24,694 bases of DNA, from positions 1 to 24,694 of the forward strand of contig DAIENX010000077.1 of the NCBI GenBank assembly GCA_027340875.1, read 5' to 3'. Positions within the stretch are counted from its first letter, which is position 1, and every line of letters begins with the position of its first letter. The stretch comes from Elusimicrobiota bacterium. Its GTDB lineage: Bacteria; Elusimicrobiota; Elusimicrobia; Elusimicrobiales; UBA9959. The notes under the pieces are model-generated. The model searched no databases and was not told the origin of the DNA. It was given only the letters and a program-made list of their open reading frames with translations. Below, one piece after another: positions 2,952-21,970 of this stretch. A program made the translations under genes and the position numbers.

Positions 2952-5900
2952 ATGAAACGGCTCATCTGCGCGTTCTTTATGGCGGCCTTGCCGCTCTCGT
3001 ATAACTGCGCCGCCTTCGCGGCCGACTGGCCGATGTTCAGGGCCGACCGGGCCCGCACCGGTTATCTGCCGGAGCAGGCCTATCCGCCGCTGACGCAGAT
3101 GTGGGAGTTCCAAGTTCAGGGCGACGTGGTGGCGGGCCCGGTGGCAAGCGGCGGAATGGTCTACGCGGCCGCGCGCTCCGGCAGCGTCTACGCGCTGAAC
3201 GCGTACACAGGCGAGCTCATCTGGGACTATTCCACCAACGACTGGGTGGACGCCCCCCCGACCGTGTCCAGCGGGACGGTGTACGTGCCGTCGAGGGACG
3301 GGCATCTATACGCGCTGGACAGGCTGACCGGCGGCGTCCTCTGGAGCGCCGCTCTCGGAGGCCCGTCTATCTCCAGCCCGCTGGTGCTGGACGGCAAGGT
3401 GTACGTGGGCGTCGGGGCCCCGCAGAACATGCTGAAAGCCTTCGACGCCGCCACCGGCGCCCCGCTCTGGCAGTACGCGGCGCTGAGGCCGCAGCCGGTG
3501 GAATCGGCCCCGTCCACGGACGGCCGTACTGTCTATTTCGGCTCCAACGGGGGGAGGGTCTACGCGCTGGAGAAGGACACGGGCCAGCCGGCCTGGACCT
3601 TCTCCGGTACGCAACAGACCATGGGGAGCTTCGGCAGCGGCGCGCTGCCGGTCAGCAGCGGGTCCGTTTACGCCCTGCCGGGCCACGACGAGAGGAGGCT
3701 GCTGCGCTTTTCGGCCGCTGACGGCAATCAGACCGCCGAGAGCGCCCCGTTCGCCGAGCTCGTAGGCCAGGCCAGCGAGAACGAGGTGACCACCCCCGTG
3801 ATCTCTCCGTACGGCGTGTTCGCCGGGGCCGGTTCGCGCCCGCACCATATCTACGCCTTCGACCCCTAGTCGCTCTCCGACATAGCCTTCAGTTCCCCTT
3901 CGGCGGGCGGGACGCTGGCCTTCGGGGTGCTCTCGTCGCCCTCTATGGCCAACGGCGTGATGTATCTGGGCACGGTGGACGCCCGGATGCTGGCCGTCAG
4001 CTCTTCCGGCGCCGTACTGCAGTCCCTGGCGGTCTCTTCGTCGGTCTATACCTCCCCGGCCGTTTCGAACGGCTGGGTCTACGCCGGCACCATGGGCGGG
4101 ACCGTTCTGGGCTTCAAGGCCGCCCTCGCCGCCTCCATCTCCTACCCGGCGACCTACCAGGTGGTGGACGGCACGGTGCCGGTGCGGGGCTGGCTGCGCA
4201 ACCCGGCCCTTTCCGGCTACCTGCTGGAGTACGGGCAGGGTGAGGCGCCGGCGTCGTGGACCACGCTGGTCTCCACGACGGCCTCCTCCGAGGTGTCCGG
4301 CGGCCAGCTGGGCTCCTGGGACGTCACCGGGCTGGCGAACGGGCTTTACACGCTGCGGCTGACCGCTTCGGAATCGTCGCCGTCGGGTTCGCTGCCGCGC
4401 GGCATGGTCACCGCGAGAGTCAACCACAGGCCTCAGCCGCCCGTCTCGCTAGCCGCCGCGGACAATCCCGGAGACAGCGGCAACAGGCTGGCGCTGTCCT
4501 GGACGGCTTCGCCTTCGTCGTGGGTGACGGCCTATAACGTCTACCGTGCCCCTGCCGGAGGGGGGTTCTCCTATCTGGCCGGCGTCAGCACCCCGGCCGT
4601 GAGCTATCTGGACGCCACCGCAGTGACTGGCTCTACCTTCACTTACGCGGTCCGCGCCTTCGACGGCTACGATGAATCCGCGGATTCTCCGTACGTATCC
4701 GCTTTCTCCGTCAACGATAATCCCTCCTCCGATGTCGTGGCCCCGTCGGCTCCGCACGCCCTGGCCGCCGCGCCCGGCGCGGCCGGAGGCTCGGTGGACC
4801 TGTCCTGGACTGCTCCGGGCGGCGATGGCGACGTAGGCGCCGCCGCCGGTTACGAGATACGCTACGCCACCTGGCCTTCCTTCGACTGGGCCACGGCCGC
4901 GGTCTGGAAGAGCACGCGTGCCGCGTCAGGACCCTACGGCACGGCCGAGATCGAAACGGTGCGCGGCCTGTTCGGAGGGGTGACGTACTATTTCTCGCTG
5001 GAGGCCTACGACCTCAATTCCAACTATTCCGTTCCCTCCGCCGCCGTTTTCGCGGCGGCGACGCGCGACCTTGTCGCGCCGGGGGCCCCGGGCGGGCTTT
5101 CCGTGGCCGATAGGCCCGGCGACCACGGCGGGGCGCTGACGCTGTCCTGGACCCGCTCCGCGGACGACGGCGCCGGGGCCGGCGACGTCTACGGCTACAG
5201 GGTGTTCCGGGCCCTTCACTCCGGAGTGCAGCTTTCCACCTCTCCTTACGCCGAGGTGGGCGCCGGTACGGCGGTCTATACCGACACGTCCGCCCCGTCG
5301 AACCTTAAGTTCTATTATGCCGTGGCGGCGTTCGACAGCACCAACCTTTCCACCGCGACGGCCGAGGCCTCCGGCATCTCCGCGGACAACTGGCGGTTCT
5401 TCGACAAGTCCAACGGCGGCTCGGTGCGGCTGACCGACGGCGCGGAGGTCAGCATCCCCGGAGACGGCGCCTCCCAGAACGACAACCTGCTGGTGACCCG
5501 GTTGGACCAGGCCGAGTATTTCGGGACCTCGGCGCGCGTGAAGGCGGACACCGGCGGCGCCAGGCCCACCGGCATAGTCTACGAAGTGAAGTTCGAGAAT
5601 CCGTCCACGACGCTGCTGAAGCCGGCTGTGATCTATCTTCCCTACACCGACGCCGAGACCGCTTCCGTGCCGGCGGCGAGCCTGCGCGTCTATCTGCTCG
5701 ACGGCGCGCGCTGGGTGCTGATGAACACTTCCAAGGCGCTGCCGGAACAGCATAAGGTCAGCGCCGAGGTCAAGCATTTCTCCGTGTACTCGCTGCTCGG
5801 CTACGTGCCTTCCGGGGCGCTGCTGACCTCCGACCGGGTCTACACCTATCCCAATCCGGCCCGCGGAGATACGCTGACGTTCAGGTTCCTGCCGGCTGAC

Positions 5901-6104
5901 AACTCCGACGTGACCATCGACGTGTACAACGTGGCCGGCGAGAAGGTGGCCAGGCTGGCCAAGGACTCCTGTCCTGGCGGCGTGACCTCGGAGATAGTCT
6001 GGCGCGTGGCCAACGTGGCCAGCGGGGTGTACGTGTACCGGCTGGAGGCCAGGAGCCCTTCGGGCACCAAGTCGATCACCAAGAAGCTCGCCATAGTACA
6101 TTAA
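2952..6104 (+). pseudogene. Single ~1050-codon gene interrupted by one in-frame TAG (3867-3869): signal peptide, PQQ-like beta-propeller, Fn3-like repeats, ZU5-like domain, T9SS type-A-like C-terminal sorting domain. Nonsense allele, readthrough or sequence error
   Basis: ORFs 2952-3869 and 3927-6104 share a frame, and the 19 codons between them are stop-free (SLSDIAFSSPSAGGTLAFG). The first part has a signal peptide plus DWPMFRADRARTG. The second starts mid-propeller (LSSPSMANGVMYLGT) and ends YTYPNP...IDVYNVAGEKV...SGVYVYRL...TKKLAIVH. Confidence 0.7.
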
Positions 6105-6120
6105 AGGGAAGGACCAGGGG

Positions 6121-7656
6121 ATGGATATGCCGAGAGAAAGCGAATCGAAGAGGACGTGGCAGACGGCCGCCGCGCTGCTGGCGGCCGTATGCCTCTGCGC
6201 AACGGCCGCGGATTCCCGCGCGGCCAGGATCTACCCTTCCGCCGGCACCACCTCCGCCGCCTTCCTGAAGATAGGAGTGGGGGCCCGGCCCTCAGCTATG
6301 GCCGGGGCCTATACCGCCCTTTCCGACGACGCCTACGCCGTTTACTGGAACCCGGCCGGTCTGGCGCTGGGCCCGGGCAAGACGCTGGTCTTCACGCACA
6401 ACGACTACTTTCAGGGACTGGGGCAGGAATATTTCGGCTTCACGCTGCCGGGCGAGGAGACCGGCCTGTTCAAGAGCGGCCCGCTGGCGCGCGGCACGCT
6501 GGGCCTGGGTCTGGACTATTTTTACACGCCCAAGGACCTGGAGCGGCGCAGCGGCCTCAACGAGGCCGACCCGCTGGTCCCGATCTCGCCCGTGGAGGGG
6601 AAGTTCAGCGCCTACGACATGGCCTTCTCGGCCGCCTACGGCTTCAGCTACAGCCAGGACCTGCGCCTGGGCGCGGCCCTGAAGTTCATCCGCCAGAGCA
6701 TAGACAACGACGCAGGCAACACCGTAGCGCTGGACCTCGGCGCGCTCTATGATTTCAACTGGCTGGACAGGCAGTTCACCGCCGGTTTCGCGGTGCAGAA
6801 CTTCGGGCCTGGAATAAAGTTCGTTTCCCGGAGTTTCGACCTGCCGCTGACCTTCAGGGCCGGCGTCTCCCACCGGATCTATCAGAAGGGATTGCTGCTC
6901 TCGGCGGACCTGGTCAAGCCGATAGACAACTACCCGTCGCTGGCGTTGGGGCTGGAGCACCCGCTGCCCGGCGGCCTGGCCCTCAGGACCGGCTACCGTT
7001 ACCGCCAGCACGGTAACGAACTGGGAGCCTGGTCCGGCTTCGCGGCGGGCCTCGGCTTCGTCTACAACCAGCTCAGCTTCGACTACGCTTTCTCCCCGTT
7101 CGGCGATCTCGGCTCTGCCCACCGCGTCTCGCTGGCTTTCAGGTTCGGGGCCCCGCCCAAAGCGGCGCCCAAGCCGCCTACCGGAGCGGAGCCGGCCGCG
7201 GAACGGGTAGAGGGAGCGGCCTTAAGCTACGAGGTCACGCTCCTGCCGCTGAAGATCTCCAACCTGAGCGCCGAATTCGAGGTAAAGGCCTTTTCCGACA
7301 AGGCGGCGCTCAGCGGCATGGAATTCAGGACCAGGCAGCGCGGCGGAGGAGAGCCGCGGCTGGAGGTGATGGAAGGCGCTTTGCCGCCGGGACTGCGCGC
7401 GGCCCTGCCCGGCGGCTTCACGCCGCTCGCGGCCTGGCAGCTGGGTTCGGGCTTTGCCGGGGTCAGCGGCGATATCAGCATGACCTTCCGCTTCCTGGAG
7501 CCGGCCGTTAACTCTGGCGAGACCTGGTTGTTCTATATGACCTCTTCCGGCTGGCGGCGGGTGCCGGCGGAGAAGGGGGGCTGCGACGGAGGGATCTGCG
7601 AGCTCTCCGGGAAGGTTCCGCTTAGCTCGCATTACGCGCTGGCCGTGAAGAACTAG
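6121..7656 (+). CDS. PorV/PorQ-like (UPF0164/FadL-related) outer-membrane beta-barrel with a C-terminal extension
   Basis: Signal peptide, then FLKIGVGARPSAMAGAYTA...AVYWNPAGL, typical of the PorV/PorQ family. Barrel ends DYAFSPFGDLGSAHRVSLAFRFG, followed by a Pro-rich linker and an extra domain. Start could be 6127. Confidence 0.8.
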   Translation: MDMPRESESKRTWQTAAALLAAVCLCATAADSRAARIYPSAGTTSAAFLKIGVGARPSAMAGAYTALSDDAYAVYWNPAGLALGPGKTLVFTHNDYFQGLGQEYFGFTLPGEETGLFKSGPLARGTLGLGLDYFYTPKDLERRSGLNEADPLVPISPVEGKFSAYDMAFSAAYGFSYSQDLRLGAALKFIRQSIDNDAGNTVALDLGALYDFNWLDRQFTAGFAVQNFGPGIKFVSRSFDLPLTFRAGVSHRIYQKGLLLSADLVKPIDNYPSLALGLEHPLPGGLALRTGYRYRQHGNELGAWSGFAAGLGFVYNQLSFDYAFSPFGDLGSAHRVSLAFRFGAPPKAAPKPPTGAEPAAERVEGAALSYEVTLLPLKISNLSAEFEVKAFSDKAALSGMEFRTRQRGGGEPRLEVMEGALPPGLRAALPGGFTPLAAWQLGSGFAGVSGDISMTFRFLEPAVNSGETWLFYMTSSGWRRVPAEKGGCDGGICELSGKVPLSSHYALAVKN

Positions 7657-14332: not shown

Positions 14333-16060
14333 ATGCTGATAAAGAAAGGGGTGCCGGCCAGCCTCGGAATAGCCATAGGCAAGGCCCATATCGTCAAAGA
14401 GGAGAACATCCTCATCGAGCAGAAGGACGTTCCGCCCGAGAAGATCAAGGCGGAGGTGAAGCGCTTCAAGGAGGCGCTCGACAAGACCAAGCTCGACCTC
14501 GACGCGATACGGGGCAAGATCCTGAACGTGCTCGGCAAGCAGCACGCCAAGCTGATAGACGCGCACCACCTGATCCTGCAGGACCCGCTGATCACCAAGG
14601 AGGTGCCGAAGCTGATCGTCTCCAAGGGGATGAACGCCGAGTTCGCTCTCTCCGAGATACTCGACAAGGCCGAGGAACAGTTCGAGAAGATAGACGACGA
14701 GTTCTTCCACGAGCGCAAGCACGACATCTTCGACGTGGGCAAGAAGATCATCTCCAACCTGGTCAACAGCAAGAAGACCTCGTTGAAGGACCTGAAGGAC
14801 CCGGTCATCATCGTGGCGCACAACCTCTATCCGTCGGATACGCTGCATATCCGCGAGTCCAACAAAGTGCTGGGCTTCTGCATGGACCTCGGCTCCAAGT
14901 CCAGCCATACCGCCATCTTCGCGCAGAGCATGGGCATACCGGCCGTCGTCGGACTGTCCGACATCAGCCGCCAGATCCAGAGCGGCGACACTCTGGTGGT
15001 GGACGGCGAGCAGGGGATGGTCATCATCTCGCCCACCACCGAGATCATCGAGAAGTATAAGGTGCGCAAGGAGGAGCTGCAGAAGCAGGAGCACTTCTTC
15101 CACCGCCTGAAGGGCCTGCCCGCCACCACGCGCGACGGCCACAAGATCAGCCTGATGTGCAACCTGGACTCCGCCGAGGACGCGCCCGAGCTGCCGGCCG
15201 TCAAGGCCGAGGGCGTGGGCCTGTACCGCACCGAGTTCCTGTATATGAACCGGGATTCGGTGCCTACGGAGGAGGAGCAGCTGACCGCGTATTCCTCGGT
15301 GGTGAAGGCCGCGCCGGGGATCCCGCTGACGATACGCACCGCCGATATCGGCGGCGACCGCGCCACCCAGCTCGGCATCAAGGGCTTGAAGGACGAACGC
15401 AACCCTTTCATGGGCTTCCGCGGCATCCGCCTGTTCATCAAGTACCCCGAGCTGCTGAAGACGCAGCTGCGGGCCATCTACAAGGCGAACACCGAAGGGA
15501 ACATCAAGGTGATGATCCCGATGCTGTCCTCGGCCGACGAGCTGCTGACCGTGAAGCGCATAGCGGCCGACGTGAAGACCGAGCTGGCCGAGGAGGGCTT
15601 TAGCGTCGGCAAGGACCCCGAGTTCGGCGTGATGGTGGAGATCCCGGCCGCGGCCATCATTCTGGACTCGCTGCTCGGCGAGATCGACTTCGTCTCGATA
15701 GGCACGAACGACCTGGTGCAGTACACGCTGGCCGTGGACCGCATCAACCAGTACGTTTCCGAGCTGTACGAGCCTTTCCACCCGGCGGTGCTGCGCCTGA
15801 TAAACCTGGTGGTGCAGACGGCCCACAAGAAGGGCAAGCCGGTCTCCGTCTGCGGCGAGATGGCCTCCGACCCGTACGCGATACCGCTGCTGATCGGCCT
15901 CGGCGTGGACATACTCTCGGTGCCGGCCAAGATGTACCTGCGCTCCAAGCACTCGGTCCGCTCGATGAGCTTCGAGAAGTTCACCGGCATAGCGCAGCGC
16001 GCGCTCAGCATGGCCACCTCCGACGAGATACGCCGGCTGGTCGAGGAAGAGGTGAAGTGA
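14333..16060 (+). CDS. ptsI: PEP-protein phosphotransferase, Enzyme I
   Basis: SSHTAI, GVGLYRTEF, ERNPFMGFRGIR, SIGTNDLVQY and CGEMASDP motifs; 575 aa. Confidence 0.97.
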   Translation: MLIKKGVPASLGIAIGKAHIVKEENILIEQKDVPPEKIKAEVKRFKEALDKTKLDLDAIRGKILNVLGKQHAKLIDAHHLILQDPLITKEVPKLIVSKGMNAEFALSEILDKAEEQFEKIDDEFFHERKHDIFDVGKKIISNLVNSKKTSLKDLKDPVIIVAHNLYPSDTLHIRESNKVLGFCMDLGSKSSHTAIFAQSMGIPAVVGLSDISRQIQSGDTLVVDGEQGMVIISPTTEIIEKYKVRKEELQKQEHFFHRLKGLPATTRDGHKISLMCNLDSAEDAPELPAVKAEGVGLYRTEFLYMNRDSVPTEEEQLTAYSSVVKAAPGIPLTIRTADIGGDRATQLGIKGLKDERNPFMGFRGIRLFIKYPELLKTQLRAIYKANTEGNIKVMIPMLSSADELLTVKRIAADVKTELAEEGFSVGKDPEFGVMVEIPAAAIILDSLLGEIDFVSIGTNDLVQYTLAVDRINQYVSELYEPFHPAVLRLINLVVQTAHKKGKPVSVCGEMASDPYAIPLLIGLGVDILSVPAKMYLRSKHSVRSMSFEKFTGIAQRALSMATSDEIRRLVEEEVK

Positions 16061-16070
16061 ATGCCGAGCA

Positions 16071-16202
16071 GTGCCGTGGCGGGGCAATGGCGCAGAGGGT
16101 ACTCGCGCAGGGCGAGGCTTGCGCAAGCGCCGAGCCCGAGCGGTAGCACGCGCACGGTGTGCGCGATAGCGTGCCCGAAGCGTCATTGCCCCGGCATGGC
16201 GC
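16071..16202 (+). repeat. Structured interspersed element, copy 1 (between ptsI and lepA)
   Basis: 23-bp outer stem 16071-16093/16180-16202 (three G-U/T pairs, one mismatch). It encloses GCTT-gcgc-AAGC (16117-16128) and CGCGCAC-GGT-GTGCGCG (16149-16165). Core aligns with 21555-21636. Confidence 0.8.
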
Positions 16203-16226
16203 GACTAAAGTTCTAAGAATAGCAAC

Positions 16227-18038
16227 ATGAAGATACGCAACTTTTCCATCATAGCCCACATCGACCACGGCAAATCCACGCTGGCGGACCGCTTCATACA
16301 GCTGACCGACACCGTGCCTGACCGGCAGATGAAGGAGCAGTTCCTGGACGGCATGGAGCTGGAGCGCGAGCGCGGCATAACCATCAAGGCCAAGGCCGTG
16401 CGCATGCTGTACAAGGCCGACGACGGCGAAGAGTACGTGCTGAACCTGATCGACACCCCCGGCCACGTGGACTTCTCGTACGAGGTGTCCCGCGCGATGG
16501 CCGCCTGCGAGGGCGCGATACTGCTGGTGGACGCGTCGCAGGGAGTGGAGGCCCAGACGCTGGCCCACGCGCACCTGGCGCAGTCGCTCGGCCTCAAGAT
16601 CCTGCCCGTCATCAACAAGATAGACCTCGAGCACGCCGACCCCGACGCCACCGAGGAGCAGATCTGGGAGGTCCTGAAGAACCCCGTGGAGGCCTCGCGC
16701 ATCAGCGCCAAGGACGGCCGCGGCGCCAAAGAGGTGCTGGAGCGCGTCATAAAGGAGATACCTCCGCCCGAGGGCTCGCCGGAAAGGCCGCTGAAGGCGC
16801 TGGTCTTCGACTCCTTCTACGACGTCTACAAGGGCGTCATCATCTATACCCGCGTGGTGGACGGCGAGCTCAAACCCGGCCGCCACATCTCGTTCTGGTC
16901 CAACGGCAAGTCCTATAAGGTGGAGGAGGTCGGCTACCTCAACCCCAAGATGCAGAAGTCCGAGTCCATACGCACCGGCGAGGTGGGCTACATAGTGCCC
17001 GGCATACGCGACATCCACGAGATAAAGATGGGCGACACCATCTCCGAGAAGGAGAGGAAGATAGACGCGCCGCTGCCGGGCTACAAGGACGTCAACCCGG
17101 TGGTCTACGCCGGCTTCTACCCGGTCAATACCACGGACTATACCGCGCTGAAGACCGCGCTGGAGAAGATCAGCCTCACCGACTCCTCGTTCACTTACCA
17201 GGGCGAGACGTCGAAGGCCCTGGGCTTCGGCTTCCGCATAGGCTTCATGGGGCTGCTGCACCTCGACATCATCCGGGAGCGCATAGAGCGGGAGTTCGAC
17301 ATACCGCTGATAGCCACGAACCCCAACGTCATCTACAAGGTGCTGGCCAAGACCCATCACGCCTCGAAGGAGTCGAAGTACGTGGAGGTGACCAACCCGG
17401 CCGACTTCCCGCATTACGGGGACGTGCTCGACATCATGGAGCCGTACGTGCACGCCAACATCATAGCGCCGCTGACCTACATGGAGGGCATCATTAACCT
17501 CCTGAAGGAGAAGCGCGGCGAGCACCTGAAGATAGAGTACATCTCCACGACCCGCGTGATCGTGGAGTACCTGCTGCCGCTCTCGGAGATCATCATAGAC
17601 TTCTACGACAGGCTGAAGTCGGTGTCGAAGGGCTACGCCTCGTTCGACTACGAGCCGTTCGAGTACCGCTCCTCCGACATGGTGAAGATAGAGATGCTGC
17701 TGCACGGGGACGTGGTGGACGCCCTCTCCTTCATCACGCACAAGACCAAGTCGCTCTCGGCGTCGCGCCAGCTCTGCGAGAAGCTCAAAGAGCTGATCCC
17801 GAAGCACATGTTCGAGATAGCGGTGCAGGCGCAGGTGAACGGCAAGATCATCGCGCGCGAGACGATAGGCGCGCAGCGCAAGGACGTGCTGGCCAAGTGT
17901 TACGGCGGCGACATCACCCGCAAGAGGAAGCTGCTCGAGAAGCAGAAGGAAGGCAAGCGCAAAATGAAGCTGATGGGGTCGGTCGAGATCCCTCAGGAGG
18001 CCTTCATGTCGCTGCTCAAGATCAGCCAGGACAAATAG
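16227..18038 (+). CDS. lepA: Translation elongation factor 4 (LepA)
   Basis: IRNFSIIAHIDHGKSTLADR, ERERGITIK, LIDTPGHVDFSYEV, KCYGGDITRKRKLLEKQKEGK. Confidence 0.99.
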   Translation: MKIRNFSIIAHIDHGKSTLADRFIQLTDTVPDRQMKEQFLDGMELERERGITIKAKAVRMLYKADDGEEYVLNLIDTPGHVDFSYEVSRAMAACEGAILLVDASQGVEAQTLAHAHLAQSLGLKILPVINKIDLEHADPDATEEQIWEVLKNPVEASRISAKDGRGAKEVLERVIKEIPPPEGSPERPLKALVFDSFYDVYKGVIIYTRVVDGELKPGRHISFWSNGKSYKVEEVGYLNPKMQKSESIRTGEVGYIVPGIRDIHEIKMGDTISEKERKIDAPLPGYKDVNPVVYAGFYPVNTTDYTALKTALEKISLTDSSFTYQGETSKALGFGFRIGFMGLLHLDIIRERIEREFDIPLIATNPNVIYKVLAKTHHASKESKYVEVTNPADFPHYGDVLDIMEPYVHANIIAPLTYMEGIINLLKEKRGEHLKIEYISTTRVIVEYLLPLSEIIIDFYDRLKSVSKGYASFDYEPFEYRSSDMVKIEMLLHGDVVDALSFITHKTKSLSASRQLCEKLKELIPKHMFEIAVQAQVNGKIIARETIGAQRKDVLAKCYGGDITRKRKLLEKQKEGKRKMKLMGSVEIPQEAFMSLLKISQDK

Positions 18039-18096
18039 CCGCGCAACCGCGCCCCTTTCAGGGCCGTATGCCTTGAGGGGGCGGGCCGGCGCGGGC
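18038..18096 (+). other. Intergenic GC-rich stem-loop between lepA and lepB
   Basis: CGCCCCTTTCAGGGC (18050-18064) pairs with GCCTTGAGGGGGCG (18070-18083) and can be extended outward. No U-tract. Confidence 0.5.
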
Positions 18097-18109
18097 GGAG
18101 ACATACATC

Positions 18110-19108
18110 ATGGAAGAAAAACTTTTCTGGATAGGCGTGCTGATGGGCGCGCATCTGTTCCTCTCCCATCATTTCAAGGACAAGGGCAGGTTCAAGGCCG
18201 ACAACCGCTTCACGCGGGGCTGGCACGCCGTCTTCGCGGCTCTGGCCGCCTTCGTGGCGGCCGTGCTGCTGTCCGTAAGCCTCGACAACAGGCGCGGGGA
18301 CGTGGTGACCTCCATGCTCTTCAGCTGGCGGCAGCTCTCCTACGGCCTGCTGGCCGCCGCGGCCGCCGCCTCTTACGCCATGTGGAGGGGGCTGGCCGGC
18401 AAGACCAAGCTGAAGGACGGCATGAACGTCACGATGAAGGAGGACATGGAGTGGTCCGAGACGGTGTTCTCGGCCGTGCTGCTGGCCTCGGTGGTCATGT
18501 ACCTGTTCATCCAGGCCTTCAAGATCCCGTCCGGTTCCATGGAGAACACGTTCCTGATAGGAGACCACCTGTTCGTCAATAAGTTCATCTACGGGTTCAG
18601 GGTGCCGTACACGCACAAGAAGTTCCTCGCGCTGCGCCACGTCAAGCGCGGCGACATCATCGTGTTCCAGTTCCCGTCCACAGACCCGCGCGAGTTCCAG
18701 TGCGGCGGCAGCCAGTATGGCAAGGATTTCATCAAGCGCGTCATCGGCATGCCCGGCGACACCGTGGAGGTGCGCGACGGCCAGCTCTACATCAACGGCG
18801 ACAAGGCCGGGGAGGAGCCGTACGCCCGCTACGCGGACGCCTTCCGCTATCCTAAGGCCACGGGGAAGGTATCCCGGGAGGACTACCAGTCATACTGGCA
18901 GGACCGCATGCTGGGCAAGATGTTTTCGGAGTACGTGCGCGACAATTTCGGTCCGGTCACCGTGCCGCAGGGCCAGTATCTGGTCATGGGCGACAACCGC
19001 GACCGCTCCTGCGACTCGCGCTACTGGGGCGCCGTGCCGGACTACCTTATAAAGGGCAGGGCCTGGTTCCGCTACTGGCCCCCGTCGCGCATAGGTTTCC
19101 CGGAATGA
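18110..19108 (+). CDS. lepB: Signal peptidase I (S26A) with extra N-terminal membrane segments
   Basis: IPSGSMENT (catalytic Ser), DFIKRVIG (catalytic Lys), MGDNRDRSCDSRYWG. Follows lepA. Confidence 0.95.
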   Translation: MEEKLFWIGVLMGAHLFLSHHFKDKGRFKADNRFTRGWHAVFAALAAFVAAVLLSVSLDNRRGDVVTSMLFSWRQLSYGLLAAAAAASYAMWRGLAGKTKLKDGMNVTMKEDMEWSETVFSAVLLASVVMYLFIQAFKIPSGSMENTFLIGDHLFVNKFIYGFRVPYTHKKFLALRHVKRGDIIVFQFPSTDPREFQCGGSQYGKDFIKRVIGMPGDTVEVRDGQLYINGDKAGEEPYARYADAFRYPKATGKVSREDYQSYWQDRMLGKMFSEYVRDNFGPVTVPQGQYLVMGDNRDRSCDSRYWGAVPDYLIKGRAWFRYWPPSRIGFPE

Positions 19109-19971
19109 AGGTCACCGAGCGCCTCAAGGCCGGCGGCAAGGTCTTCTCCTTCGAGTTCTATCCCCCAAAGACGGAGGCGGACGCGAAGCGGCTTTTCGAC
19201 GCGGCCAGGGAGCTCAAGACCCTTTCCCCTGACTTCGTCTCGGTCACCAACTCCTCGGCCGGCACCCTGCCGTACCGCACCGTGGCGCTGTCCGGAGTGC
19301 TGAAGAACGAGATAGGCCTGGAGGTCGTGGCGCACCTGACCTGCCTGGCGCATACGCGCGCCGAGATCCTCGAGATAGTCTACGGCCTCAAGAAGATGGG
19401 CATCGAGAACGTGCTGGCGCTGCGCGGCGACAGGGAGAACGTGGTGGGCGAGCCGCCCGGGGATTACAAGTACGCCTCCCAGCTCGCCGCCGATATTGCC
19501 GCGGACGGCTGGTTCTCCGTGGGCGGAGCCTGCTACCCGGAGAAGCACCCGGAAGCCGCCACGCTGCAGGAGGACATCGCCCATCTCCGGGAGAAGACGG
19601 CGGCCGGGACCTCGTACCTGATAACGCAGCTCTTCTTCGATAATTCGCTTTATTTCGGCTTCCTGGAGAAGACGGCCGCCGCCGGCATTTCCGTGCCGAT
19701 ACTCCCCGGGCTGATGCCGATCACCGGCTACCGCCAGATACAGAAGTTCACCCAGCTGATGAACGTCTCGGTGCCGGCTGCGCTGCGCGCCGGCATAGAG
19801 CGCTGGGACGGCGACAAGGACGGGATGTTCAAGTTCAGCGTGGATTACGCCTCAAGACAGGCCGAGGAGCTGCTGAAGGGCGGGGCGCCGGGCCTGCACC
19901 TGTACACGCTGAACCGCAGCAAGGCGGCTATCGAGATACTCAGGAACGTCAGGGGCGGGGCGCTTAAATAA
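19105..19971 (+). CDS. metF: 5,10-methylenetetrahydrofolate reductase
   Basis: FSFEFYPPK, AHLTC, LALRGD, YPEKHPE, ITQLFFD and HLYTLNR motifs. ATGA overlap with lepB. Confidence 0.95.
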   Translation: MKVTERLKAGGKVFSFEFYPPKTEADAKRLFDAARELKTLSPDFVSVTNSSAGTLPYRTVALSGVLKNEIGLEVVAHLTCLAHTRAEILEIVYGLKKMGIENVLALRGDRENVVGEPPGDYKYASQLAADIAADGWFSVGGACYPEKHPEAATLQEDIAHLREKTAAGTSYLITQLFFDNSLYFGFLEKTAAAGISVPILPGLMPITGYRQIQKFTQLMNVSVPAALRAGIERWDGDKDGMFKFSVDYASRQAEELLKGGAPGLHLYTLNRSKAAIEILRNVRGGALK

Positions 19972-19980
19972 GGGGGCGGG

Positions 19981-20727
19981 ATGGAGACGGTTCACAGCGG
20001 GTCTGCGAGGGCCCTGGTGGAGTTGCAGAAGAGGGACACGGCTATAGCCGCGCTGAAGGCCAGGATCGCCGGAGTGCCGGTAAGGCTCAAGGCCGTCAAT
20101 GATGCCTTCGAGGCGAAGAAAGCGGCCATGAGCGCCGCCAGAGAGACCCTGATGGCGCTGCAGTCCAGGAAAAAGGACTCGGAACTCCGGATAGCCGAGG
20201 CGGAAGAGGGGATACGCAAGCACCAGCGGGAGCTCAACATGGTGAAGGACAACGACGCCTTCAAGGCCCTGCTGAAGGAGATCGATAACGACAAGGCCGC
20301 CAAGGACGAGCTGGAGACCGGAGTGCTCGAGCTGCTCGAGGAGATAGACAAAGCCTCCGTGAAGGACAAGGCCGAGCAGGCCGAGGTGGCCGTGGTAGCG
20401 GCGCAGCGCGACAAGGAAGCCGCGGCGCTCGAGGCCGAAGGCCGCGAGGCGGCCGGGATGCTCTCCGAGGCGGAAGCCGGCAGGGCCGGGGTGGCCGCCG
20501 GCATCGAAGCCGACCTTCTGGAGCGCTACGACGCGCTGCGGGCCAGCCGGGCGAACCTCGCGGTAGCGGAGGTGCACGCGGACCAGGCCACCGGCAAGCT
20601 CTCCTGCGGAGGCTGCCATATGGGCCTGACGCCGCAGAAGGCGCTGGATGTAAAGAAGCACGATACCTTCGCCGTCTGTCCGGAATGCAGGCGCTGGATG
20701 TACCTCGAAGCGACGATAAAAGGGTAG
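19981..20727 (+). CDS. Coiled-coil protein with C4-type zinc ribbon (DUF164/COG1579-like)
   Basis: Long charged helical region, then CGGCHM...CPECRR. This family often lies upstream of rnpB. Confidence 0.88.
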   Translation: METVHSGSARALVELQKRDTAIAALKARIAGVPVRLKAVNDAFEAKKAAMSAARETLMALQSRKKDSELRIAEAEEGIRKHQRELNMVKDNDAFKALLKEIDNDKAAKDELETGVLELLEEIDKASVKDKAEQAEVAVVAAQRDKEAAALEAEGREAAGMLSEAEAGRAGVAAGIEADLLERYDALRASRANLAVAEVHADQATGKLSCGGCHMGLTPQKALDVKKHDTFAVCPECRRWMYLEATIKG

Positions 20728-20742
20728 CTGATGGGTTTCGCC

Positions 20743-20767
20743 GGGAATTTTTTCGATGAAAATTCCC
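20743..20767. terminator. Possible terminator-like hairpin after the zinc-ribbon gene
   Basis: GGGAATTTT-ttcgatg-AAAATTCCC is a perfect 9-bp inverted repeat, but has no downstream U-tract. Confidence 0.3.
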
Positions 20768-20768
20768 C

Positions 20769-20931
20769 CGCGCATAGCGCGGGCGCTGGAGGCGCGGTAT
20801 ACTGGCCAATGGCCGTGCCGTATCAGGCGCAATGCGCTTCAGACGGCCACCCTCTCGGGCGCTGCGCGCATAGCGCTTGGCCCTTAGGGCAATGCCCATG
20901 CCGCATCAGGAGCTATGCTCTTCAGGCGGCC
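20769..20931. repeat. Two-unit structured direct repeat (45-nt units at 20804-20848 and 20887-20931, each preceded by CGCGCATAGCGC)
   Basis: Units are 37/45 identical, and 6 of the 8 differences form 3 compensatory pairs. The 12-mer CGCGCATAGCGC occurs at 20769-20780 and 20865-20876. Confidence 0.85.
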
Positions 20932-20976
20932 GACCCGCTGAAGCGGGGAACCCTGCAAACAGGGTTCGGGATAAAT

Positions 20977-21351
20977 TTTCAGACCGCGGACGGAGGGCCG
21001 CTCTTCCCGAAAGGGAGGGGAGGAACTTCCGAACTTCACAGGGCAGGGTGCCGGTTCAAAGCCGCTAAGCGGCCATAGGCCGGGAGGCGGGGGCCATATC
21101 CCCCGTCGACGGACAGCGCCACAGAGAACATACCGCCCGCAAGGGTAAGGGTGAAAAGGTGCGGTAAGAGCGCACCGCGCGCCGGGCGACCGGCGCGGCA
21201 GGGCAAGCCCCTCCTGAAGCAAGGCCAAAATCGCGCCATGGACTGCCCGTCCGCCCTTCGGGGCAGCGCGGAGTGGGCCGCACTAGATAAATGGTCCTCC
21301 AGATGCCGCAAGGCATTGGACAGAATTCGGGGTACAGTCCGCGGTCTGAAA
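20977..21351 (+). ncRNA. rnpB: RNase P RNA, bacterial type A, atypical
   Basis: P1 20977-20991/21337-21351; P2 20992-21000/21292-21300. Conserved blocks GAGGAAnnUCC, CACAGAGAACAUACCGCC, GGUAAGGGUGAAAAGGUGCGGUAAGAGCGCACC, AGCAAGGCCAAA, CUAGAUAAAUG, ACAGAAUUCGG. Confidence 0.96.
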
Positions 21352-21358
21352 GAATTCC

Positions 21359-21491
21359 GGGTTCGTCCCCGGGCCAGGTCTCAAAAACAGGGTCGGCCAC
21401 ACCGTGGCCGCCCTTCCGCGCCTCAGCCCTCGCGCTTATGCAAGCTCGGGCTTCCGGCACGGTTTTTCGACCTGGGCCCGGTTCCGAACCC
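21359..21491 (-). repeat. Structured interspersed element, copy 2 (reverse orientation, immediately after rnpB)
   Basis: Outer stems GGGTTCG/CGAACCC, CCGGGCCAGGTC/GACCTGGGCCCGG, AAAAAC/GTTTTT. Minus-strand core GCTT-gcat-AAGC (21434-21445) and GGCCAC-GGT-GTGGCCG (21394-21409). Confidence 0.75.
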
Positions 21492-21509
21492 TACATGGCG
21501 GGAACTTGG

Positions 21510-21678
21510 CGGCAGGCTGATAACGGGAGCGGGTGGCGAGGGTTCGCCTTCGCAGGGGCCTCGCGAGCGCGAGGCTTGCGAAGCGACGAGCACGAGTGAA
21601 AGAGCGAGGCCACGGTGTGGCCGCGCGTACCCGGAGAAGGCAACCCTCGACAGGACCCGCGGACTTGCAGGCCTGCCG
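21510..21678 (+). repeat. Structured interspersed element, copy 3
   Basis: Nested outer stems CGGCAGGC/GCCTGCCG, GCGGGT/ACCCGC, CGAGGGTTcGCCTTC/GAAGGCAACCCTCG. Core GCTT-gcg-AAGC (21574-21584) and GGCCAC-GGT-GTGGCC (21608-21622). Confidence 0.8.
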
Positions 21679-21697: not shown

Positions 21698-21970
21698 ATG
21701 GATTCACTGGCGGCGAAGATACCGGAGATAAAGTACTCGTCCGACGCGGGGGAGATACCGTGGGACGACGCCGTGGTCTGGAGCCAGATGCCGCGGGTGG
21801 GGCCCCGCGTATACGAGTGGATAGAGGGTTCGCATATCCGCTACGTTTCATGGAGCAACGGCCTGGTCAACATCCTGCCGGACAATAGTTCCATCCTCAG
21901 CTCGCATTGCCAGTGCATAGTGCTTCCTTCCGCTTTCGTCTGGGTCGGCAAGAACGTCAAGGTGGGCTGA
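21698..21970 (+). CDS. Hypothetical protein, 90 aa
   Basis: ATG at 21698 preceded by AAGGGG; codon style matches neighbouring genes (MDSLAAKIPEIKYSSD...). The upstream extension in the ORF track runs through repeat copy 3. Confidence 0.75.
   Translation: MDSLAAKIPEIKYSSDAGEIPWDDAVVWSQMPRVGPRVYEWIEGSHIRYVSWSNGLVNILPDNSSILSSHCQCIVLPSAFVWVGKNVKVG

Follow-up and report, generated by a model that had tools for sequence, protein, structure and literature searches.

The copies at 16071–16202, 21359–21491 and 21510–21678 of the window (the whole 24,694-nucleotide stretch of Elusimicrobiota DNA analysed here) are members of one intergenic repeat family of ~145 nt. We read the element, with about an even chance of being correct, as a liberated subterminal module of IS1380 insertion sequences (ISs): it likely arose in IS ends, lost the terminal inverted repeats (TIRs), and persists as a self-renewing intergenic repeat. 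IS1380/ISEcp1 elements are noted for degenerate ends and gene capture; we found no literature description of a conserved branched fold within their non-coding ends. The family consists of hundreds of covarying natural variants, and it includes MITEs and tip-less solos as well as intact IS copies, and thus allows a direct test of whether folded DNA is read by the transposase or by a different enzyme. The element also marks sites of foreign-gene acquisition in Elusimicrobia. Should its copies prove passive, it is just one more lineage-specific repeat.

Window copies and the three-way junction

Copy 1 (16071–16202, + strand; fold and covariance model R1, 96.8 bits) is a solo element between ptsI (14333–16060, +; Pfam PEP-utilisers) and lepA (16227–18038, +; Pfam LepA_C and GTP_EFTU). 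Copies 2 (21359–21491, − strand; fold and covariance model, 107.8 bits) and 3 (21510–21678, + strand; likewise, 62.7 bits) are the left and right members of a 5′-to-5′ pair, copy 3 being a long form with extra outer arms. The pair lies 3′ of rnpB, the RNase P RNA gene (20982–21350, +; Rfam RF00010, 197.9 bits), in a gap that is an element hot spot, occupied at 19 of 30 loci in the genus. A conserved 90-aa ORF of unknown function (21698–21970, +) flanks copy 3; Pfam gives no match for the frame overlapping it. The sequence-only reading had placed all three copies, with their strands, correctly and called them structured, which agrees with RNA fold z scores of −7.2, −8.2 and −5.2 against shuffles for copies 1, 2 and 3.

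The source genome has 78 family loci, and the family is present in 33 of 36 same-genus genomes. The Y-shaped repeat is also spread over related uncultured Elusimicrobia. It covaries strongly, and at none of the 78 loci does a called gene contain an element. RNase P is the sole Rfam match within the window, and nothing matches in five element loci at E up to 1; the sequence-only reading had not recognised the element as a named family. A phage origin was considered and set aside: of four viral pattern matches, none has a convincing profile match. Likewise, no pattern match outside Elusimicrobia is backed by a profile match (27 of 135 loci are without any).

The element had been described as two hairpins in fixed order. 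The order of the two motifs holds, but they form arms of a single three-way junction, in which there are tandem GA mismatches. The arms of the CAC-GGT-GTG hairpin (arm 2 tip of copy 1, 16153–16161, +) covary, as claimed. The GCTT/AAGC pairing claimed for hairpin 1 fails, as the AA is absent in 44 of 71 parsed genome copies. Hairpin 1 consists instead of a stem followed by a TT bulge and, at the tip, a GC-GN(N)A-GC mini-hairpin, exemplified by the TT bulge and GC-GCAA-GC tip of copy 1 (16117–16128, +); the stem-TT bulge-GC-loop-GC pairing, with at least two further pairs, is found in 63 of 71 genome copies. One alignment gave GCTT/AAGC at 98.8%, an artefact of selecting its members with a pattern that demanded a 4-nt loop, and this loop-selected alignment contains no two-sided change at the pairing.

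At 48 of 71 copies the arm 1 tip matches the DNA mini-hairpin consensus GCGN(N)AGC (PMC13037366); GNA triloops are far more stable in DNA (PMC13037366). Of the 71, 17 have GNRA-compatible loops, and the arm 1 loops of G136-type copies are not GNA triloops. Other copies carry, inserted at the arm 2 loop CAC-GGT-GTG, a distinct element of 46 nt (locus L266, filled versus empty). The junction geometry is fixed across families. The outer stems, earlier called unrelated, are indeed strongly variable, yet they have a weak consensus and subtypes in common; they also have recurrent 3′ tails. A 5′ GGAG foot occurs at a fixed place in 95 of 393 copies of this long, branched element, versus 4–8 in control windows; GTAG takes its place in 9 of 393. 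In copy 3 the foot is at 21526–21529.

The module in IS1380 ends

The IS1380-family DDE enzyme is the sole transposase repeatedly found beside homologues. At 9 of 30 IS loci, a homologue identified by covariance model lies between the stop codon of the PF13701 transposase and the right TIR; by tool tallies, these nine come from seven genomes, in three genera of family f8 plus f6. The remaining 21 loci have no convincing model match, in some cases for want of a 3′ end. For the closer transposases, the non-coding stretch 3′ of the gene measures 215–234 nt with a model match versus 195–245 nt without; with lengths so similar, the module was not added there as an insert. Where IS ends and MITEs are intact, the 3′ tail of the module points outwards to the terminal repeat, and the 5′ side faces inwards.

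In f1 ISs, the left end up to the promoter block measures 261–303 nt with a module versus 112–123 nt without, so that the module here looks like an insertion into the IS. At locus L725 a window-type core sits between the left TIR and the transposase promoter, and the unit inside this left end aligns with the arms of copy 3. Those arms are seen again at other loci, and the 3′ tail of copy 3 is also found in IS1380 left ends.

TIR-bounded MITEs of 246 and 341 nt, with 5–6-bp target duplications, are built from sister cores that have this outer stem (L727 has the sister core; L732 is a match to the same IS-end probe). Solo copies form a decay series. Two (L663 and L675) retain a whole right TIR, with no transposase within the 3-kb locus; three (L636, L655 and L668) have worn TIRs, as read by eye; and 18 of 21 G136 copies have the inner TIR half-site alone, for which the two control counts are 1 and 0. 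In f1, 2 of 402 copies have a TIR-like motif on their 3′ side, compared with 7 on the side used as control, and none of the window copies has one. The sequence-only reading took the element for the reverse of a classical MITE. The inner core is the conserved part and the window copies have no TIR, yet the element is tied to MITEs, since it forms the inner module in IS ends.

A search for PF13701 genes found none in the source genome (G000, a MAG 92% complete) or in G023, G009 and G136, IS copies often failing assembly; the query transposase is matched in 9 of 79 family genomes, again with MAGs often missing IS copies. No 5-bp duplication stands out at the window pair, at five G136 pairs or at nine full-length ISs. 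According to PMC12589106, ISEcp1 captures genes, makes use of degenerate right ends and generates 5-bp duplications.

To summarize the proposal, the three-way-junction module of ~145 nt lies in the ends of some Elusimicrobia IS1380-family ISs and likely originated there, and the window copies are likely descendants without TIRs. The 5′-to-5′ pairs would be worn two-ended units, the interior of which, once the transposase, may now be a short spacer or passenger genes; such an origin would explain foreign DNA on the 5′ side. The fold is probably read as single-stranded DNA, judging from the DNA mini-hairpin consensus at the arm 1 tips and a strand choice independent of transcription. Least securely, current turnover may proceed by cutting or stalling at a folded copy, after which another copy is copied in, rather than by TIR-dependent transposition.

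Turnover, cargo and rival explanations

Copies turn over fast. In the closest relative, 7 of 44 copies are unchanged and 11 of 44 are at new sites; copy 2 keeps its outermost stem there around a different core. Copy 3 is absent from G023. The ptsI-lepA site in relatives is empty in some cases, and in others holds another subtype or orientation or other hairpin families. A given site can be refilled in either orientation, new copies land within old ones, of which an arm survives, and modules are exchanged while outer stems remain. By eye, 26 identical cores were counted among the 62 matches in G009, which we count as a lineage burst. General target duplication is seen in 1 of 291 cases, much as in the control, the one being 18 bp long. 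Breakpoints between G000 and G023 show no polarity (17 vs 16), and no conserved CTT/TTAC target tetranucleotide was found in f1. Contigs from four DNA sequencing runs include a joint that puts 78 other letters in place of copy 1, likely from another organism. Those from the RNA runs contain short, low-identity pieces alone and are uninformative on expression.

Close pairs are in the (−,+), i.e., 5′-to-5′, arrangement in 39 of 40 cases, and a minority of copies have foreign-looking genes, which lie on a constant side. Of 176 copies, 17 have a low-GC flank on the 5′ side and one on the 3′ side, and all 16 cases in G136 have the lower GC content 5′. The 5′ excess is not significant when a smaller set is analysed with 350-nt windows (11 vs 6 of 164), and in distant copies the bias is weak (17 of 27). 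Locus L426 has a tandem element-ORF6N array of four units. A tentative extension of our reading, to which we give well under an even chance, makes the freed IS1380 ssDNA module a polar, self-renewing gene-capture site that is recognised or cut when folded and replaces earlier copies. Its inverted pairs would bracket defence and orphan genes (AbiTii, an ATPase with DUF4238, a DNA methylase, YhcG and toxin-antitoxin genes), much as an integron would if it were dispersed and had no integrase. If so, IS1380/ISEcp1-type transposition has an unrecognised folded-strand step.

The sequence-only reading inferred a REP/REPIN-like element, possibly mobilised by an HUH/RAYT enzyme. The element is mobile, multi-copy and structure-conserved and probably acts as folded DNA, but the mobiliser is not supported: the element lies near 1 of 65 Y1 loci examined (about 60 further Y1 matches were left out), as cargo by that gene's own repeats. 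Other candidates were rejected as well. ORF6N is cargo, with an element at two clear and one weak of 30 loci. IS110 has one clear and one weak of six, one at the 5′ foot and one apparently inside the element. There is no element at 20 tyrosine integrase loci in five genomes or at three IS91/Y2 loci. For the small GIY-YIG nuclease, the adjacency in the source genome is a polymorphic tRNA-adjacent gap with differing subtype and orientation; the tRNA-linked gene has an element upstream at 13 of 31 loci, and other small GIY-YIG loci have one at 0 of 11.

Possibly, though we think it less likely than not, the module is instead an independent REP-like ssDNA element whose own nuclease cuts near the GGAG foot, and which invades IS1380 ends, tRNA, rnpB and other gaps. 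TIRs missing in 400 of 402 copies, fast turnover in genomes where no transposase was found, new copies within old ones with an old arm left, the foot itself, the longer IS left ends, the identical G009 cores and the one 18-bp duplication would all fit. It leaves unexplained the half-TIR tails of solos and the constant right-end length, and no cognate gene was found among the Y1, small GIY-YIG, integrase, Y2, ORF6N and IS110 loci.

It is improbable that the element is a structured RNA, such as the transposase message's 3′ end, which either is copied back into the genome or serves as a stabilising or regulatory RNA. At right ends the fold is indeed on the transposase sense strand, its 3′ end fixed inside the TIR and its 5′ side variable; the GNRA-compatible loops and the single long duplication, compatible with target priming, also suit it. 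At f1 left ends, however, the fold lies on the strand opposite to the transposase sense strand, there are no long duplications beyond that one, GNA triloops are much stabler in DNA, and orientation is independent of host transcription. A discrete ncRNA, suggested earlier, is likewise not supported: in gaps between codirectional genes, the folded strand is the sense strand 19 times and the antisense strand 27 times, and sites are refilled either way round. Equally improbable is passive debris, that is, IS remnants which host recombination and hairpin-templated repair alone keep paired and shuffle, no dedicated enzyme being at work today. This would agree with the swapping of modules within persisting outer stems and with no enzyme having been found, but the fixed junction geometry, the new sites, the opposite-orientation refills and the lineage burst are hard to obtain passively.

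Comparison with known systems

As described in the REP/BIME/REPIN literature (PMC3733652, 10.1101/279083), repeats served by RAYTs (TnpA-REP) are, like our element, intergenic, multi-copy and strand-polar, with head-to-head dimers. The GGAG foot is a partial likeness, present in just a quarter of copies. The element differs in being 145 nt long and branched, whereas a REP is a 20–40-nt hairpin; no REPtron was found, and the repeats that flank local RAYTs are different ones. The NTS/SRM repeats served by Ssn GIY-YIG ssDNA nucleases are also polar hairpin repeats tied to variable genes, and are read as ssDNA, according to PMC11893778. In contrast, the element consensus has no CGTC-type 28-nt motif, and the adjacent small GIY-YIG gene is near-universal behind its tRNA, where the gap is filled no oftener than the rnpB gap. 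An Ssn reading is not supported: the consensus has no CGTC-tagged SRM hairpin of the kind flanking cd10448 ssnA, and none of the 11 other small GIY-YIG loci has the element.

With integron attC sites and the DUF1874 motif, the element shares a conserved structure, a variable sequence and a place by cassette-like genes; branched ssDNA motifs are rare, as stated in PMC5737381. Unlike attC, it occurs mostly as dispersed solos and inverted pairs, with no integrase adjoining (0 of 20 loci). Compared with IS1380 MITEs, the window copies are without TIR or duplication, no transposase was found in their genome, the conserved part is the inner three-way junction, and cargo lies between the inward-facing 5′ sides of two modules. 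The likeness to IS1380 (ISEcp1 type) and its MITE/MIC derivatives is nonetheless direct, as the PF13701 transposase lies beside homologues, and TIR-bounded MITEs with 5–6-bp duplications have the same outer stem.

Fold and copies of the element

The three copies that the sequence-only reading placed in the window are present. Copy 1 (16071–16202, +) occupies the ptsI-lepA gap, and copies 2 (21359–21491, −) and 3 (21510–21678, +) lie immediately 3′ of the RNase P RNA gene, rnpB. Each folds into a long stem capped by two arms (z of −7.2, −8.2, and −5.2, respectively). Their proposed multi-copy status was upheld by a profile search of the window's genome, G000, in which 37 seed copies yielded 83 matches, merged into 78 loci; with genes called by a simple in-house caller, 0/78 fall within a gene. 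RNase P is the window's sole Rfam match, and five element loci gave no match at E up to 1. No description of the element family or of a structured IS1380 end was found in the literature searched; the motif tables of PMC5737381 and ISfinder records could bear on novelty. The element is real and, apparently, an undescribed variant.

The intact element is ~145 nt long and comprises a 5′ foot, a three-way junction on an outer stem of ~25 bp, and 3′ tails that recur among copies. The foot, GGAG, is found in 95 of 393 copies, versus 4–8 in three control windows. In arm 1, the stem bears tandem GA mismatches and a TT bulge and ends in a GC-loop-GC tip. Of the 78 G000 loci, 71 could be parsed for this arm and 7 could not. 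The GCTT/AAGC pairing originally read for hairpin 1 is broken in 44 of the 71; the bulged pairing holds in 63, and the tip matches GCGNAGC or GCGNNAGC in 48. The predicted covariation did appear: in a 43-row alignment of related rows, which were chosen by a pattern requiring a 4-nt loop and whose structure was derived from the same sequences, two-sided change is seen in 42 of 51 pairs, 78% of cells are paired versus 63.7% in shuffles, and the score is 0.366, versus 0.153 for shuffles and no more than 0.232 when slid. On the same measures, the divergent form in G136, another Elusimicrobia genome, gives 92% paired and 29 of 51 pairs; its loop sequences are different.

Some copies bear optional modules. 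A separate 46-nt element inserts precisely into the arm-2 loop, after CACGGT, as seen by comparing L266, from the closest relative G023, with G000:C30:5150–5200. It is also present on contigs C13, C44, C65, C71, C80, and C110, and arm 1 is likewise a target. Its location inside the element's arms makes it a small mobile element nested within another.

Side features include a 90-aa ORF of unknown function (window 21698–21970), conserved 3′ of rnpB in most genus members, and, at window 3927–7656, a gene for a T9SS-tail protein with a PorV-like gene behind it, in an Elusimicrobia genome. The gene names uvrA, rpsJ, and moaA and the label UPF0213 are our putative assignments from the sequences.

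Distribution, turnover, and candidate enzymes

A strict-pattern search was positive for 33 of the 36 genomes from the same genus and for 0 of 24 from the order's other families; the reversed-pattern control gave zero matches. Carriers are placed in Elusimicrobiales. R1, the covariance model that scores the window copies, matches 8 of 141 phylum genomes and is multi-copy in four genera of the window's family. R2, built from the G136 form, was run on 146 genomes of the class, matching 8, and on 41 G136 relatives, matching 12.

Turnover at shared sites is established. Among 28 ptsI-lepA loci with both flanks, the element fills four gaps (two alike, one of a different subtype, one reversed), the spacer is ≤33 nt in 10, and most remaining gaps, read by eye, hold unrelated hairpin families. 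At L044–L073, no fewer than four further families of hairpins or short repeats, differing by species, were seen in this gap; some share ends with repeats flanking local RAYT genes. The gap 3′ of rnpB is filled in 19 of 30 loci (15 antisense, 2 sense, 2 pairs). In G023, copy 3 is missing and the outermost stem of copy 2 is kept around a different core. Of 45 G023 loci fetched, 38 have syntenic flanks in G000, where they account for 44 copies. Of these copies, 7 are unchanged, 20 are replaced, 6 are matched only by an opposite copy, and 11 by none; orthology is doubtful at five of the loci, and a few "replaced" copies differ chiefly by the 46-nt insert. New copies are often located within old ones. 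An 18-bp duplication marks one clean empty site (1/291), the remaining sites being like the control. At L262:440–640, the insertion is at an overlapping stop/start junction and the downstream gene's first 18 bases are duplicated, so that both genes stay intact.

The RAYT-type mobilizer suggested earlier gained no support, as the element is no regular neighbor of the RAYT loci checked. The small GIY-YIG, ORF6N, IS110, IS91, and integrase loci checked likewise lack regular flanking by the element. One element has at its 5′ foot an IS110-family element (L559:960–2470) whose 3′ non-coding region spans 420 nt, and a relative (L558:1–400) is apparently inserted inside an element. Element and ORF6N gene are repeated together as tandem arrays at L426:6200–9400 and L198:1450–2770, with four units in the genome G208; a palindromic promoter-like upstream block is common to ORF6N and RAYT genes. 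The tRNA-GIY-YIG locus is found in two near-identical copies on G000 contigs C73 and C108, suggesting that the assembly mixes strains (5.5% contamination).

The element in IS1380 ends

The genomes G276 and G289 each contain a single R2 copy, 51 and 75 nt downstream, respectively, of a 435-aa gene that encodes a PF13701 transposase; both copies lie within terminal inverted repeats (TIRs). This transposase has relatives in 36 of 393 genomes of the class and, for the window's family, in 9 of 79 genomes; none was found in G000. The position and orientation of the element in IS ends, and a series of decay, are established. Among 30 IS loci scanned (25 of 30 from the transposase search plus 5 fetched), an element copy sits between the transposase stop codon and the right TIR in 9, from 7 genomes. 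Solo copies keep the whole TIR at L663 and L675 and a worn TIR elsewhere; the TIR inner half is retained in 18 of 21 in G136. In the window's family, a dead IS (L725) has a window-type core between its left TIR and its promoter block, and IS left ends and MITEs carry a sister core with the same outer stem. Of 402 copies in that family, only 2 retain a TIR. Duplications of 5–6 bp flank two MITEs; none was found at nine full ISs.

A second three-way-junction core within the same outer stem (L714, L723–L748, L323:1690–1750) turned up in left ends of IS1380 elements, in MITEs, and as solos in 12 of the 79 family genomes, and it also lies upstream of copies in G136. At L684–L710, TGTGGATAA, which we take to be DnaA-box-like, recurs where the IS1380 3′ non-coding region begins, just past the transposase stop codon.

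Polarity, cargo, and proposed origin

Pair polarity is also established. After de-duplication to 349 copies, a 5′-to-5′ orientation is seen in 39 of 40 pairs less than 300 nt apart and in 8 of 13 wider pairs. Flank GC below 0.48 is found on the 5′ side in 17 and on the 3′ side in 1 of 176 copies with both 500-nt flanks; kin are not independent here, but no clustering was seen among the cargo proteins. For G000, low-GC flanks number 5 (5′) versus 0 (3′) of 69, with 13 of 1232 sides in element-free gaps, and in G136 the lower-GC flank is the 5′ one in 16/16. Between paired copies in G136 lie AbiTii, an ATPase of 2032 aa together with DUF4238, and orphan genes; further 5′ cargo includes DNA methylase, YhcG, Gp49, ParE, and HipA genes. 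Cargo is absent at most copies. Counter to this bias are 11 versus 6 of 164 copies with 350-nt windows and 17 of 27 in additional class-wide copies. No polarity of breakpoints was found. At L367:745–8026, an inverted pair encloses the 2032-aa ATPase gene and the DUF4238 gene, a candidate defense locus.

The explanation we prefer, taken as a whole, seems to us evenly poised between right and wrong. The element would have originated as a subterminal IS1380 module; pairs would be worn two-ended units, the interior replaced by spacer or cargo; the element would act as folded ssDNA, and its present-day spread would proceed via copy-in at existing copies. An independent element may instead have invaded IS ends, a possible but distinctly weaker candidate. 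Left ends in the window's family are 140–190 nt longer with the module than in ISs lacking it, and for the closer transposases, ISs with and without it have non-coding stretches of similar length.

Spread by an RNA route is improbable. The folded strand is sense in 19 codirectional gaps and antisense in 27, and the GCGNAGC/GCGNNAGC mini-hairpin consensus is reported in PMC13037366 to have far greater stability as DNA than as RNA. That the copies are passive debris is just as hard to credit. The element's connection with IS1380 ends, its turnover without tips, and its one-sided cargo can be put to the test and would come as a moderate surprise to a specialist.

The window copies differ from IS1380 MITEs in being without TIR and without target duplication; since both were looked for and found absent, they are not filed as such. 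They look like the freed core of IS1380 MITEs.
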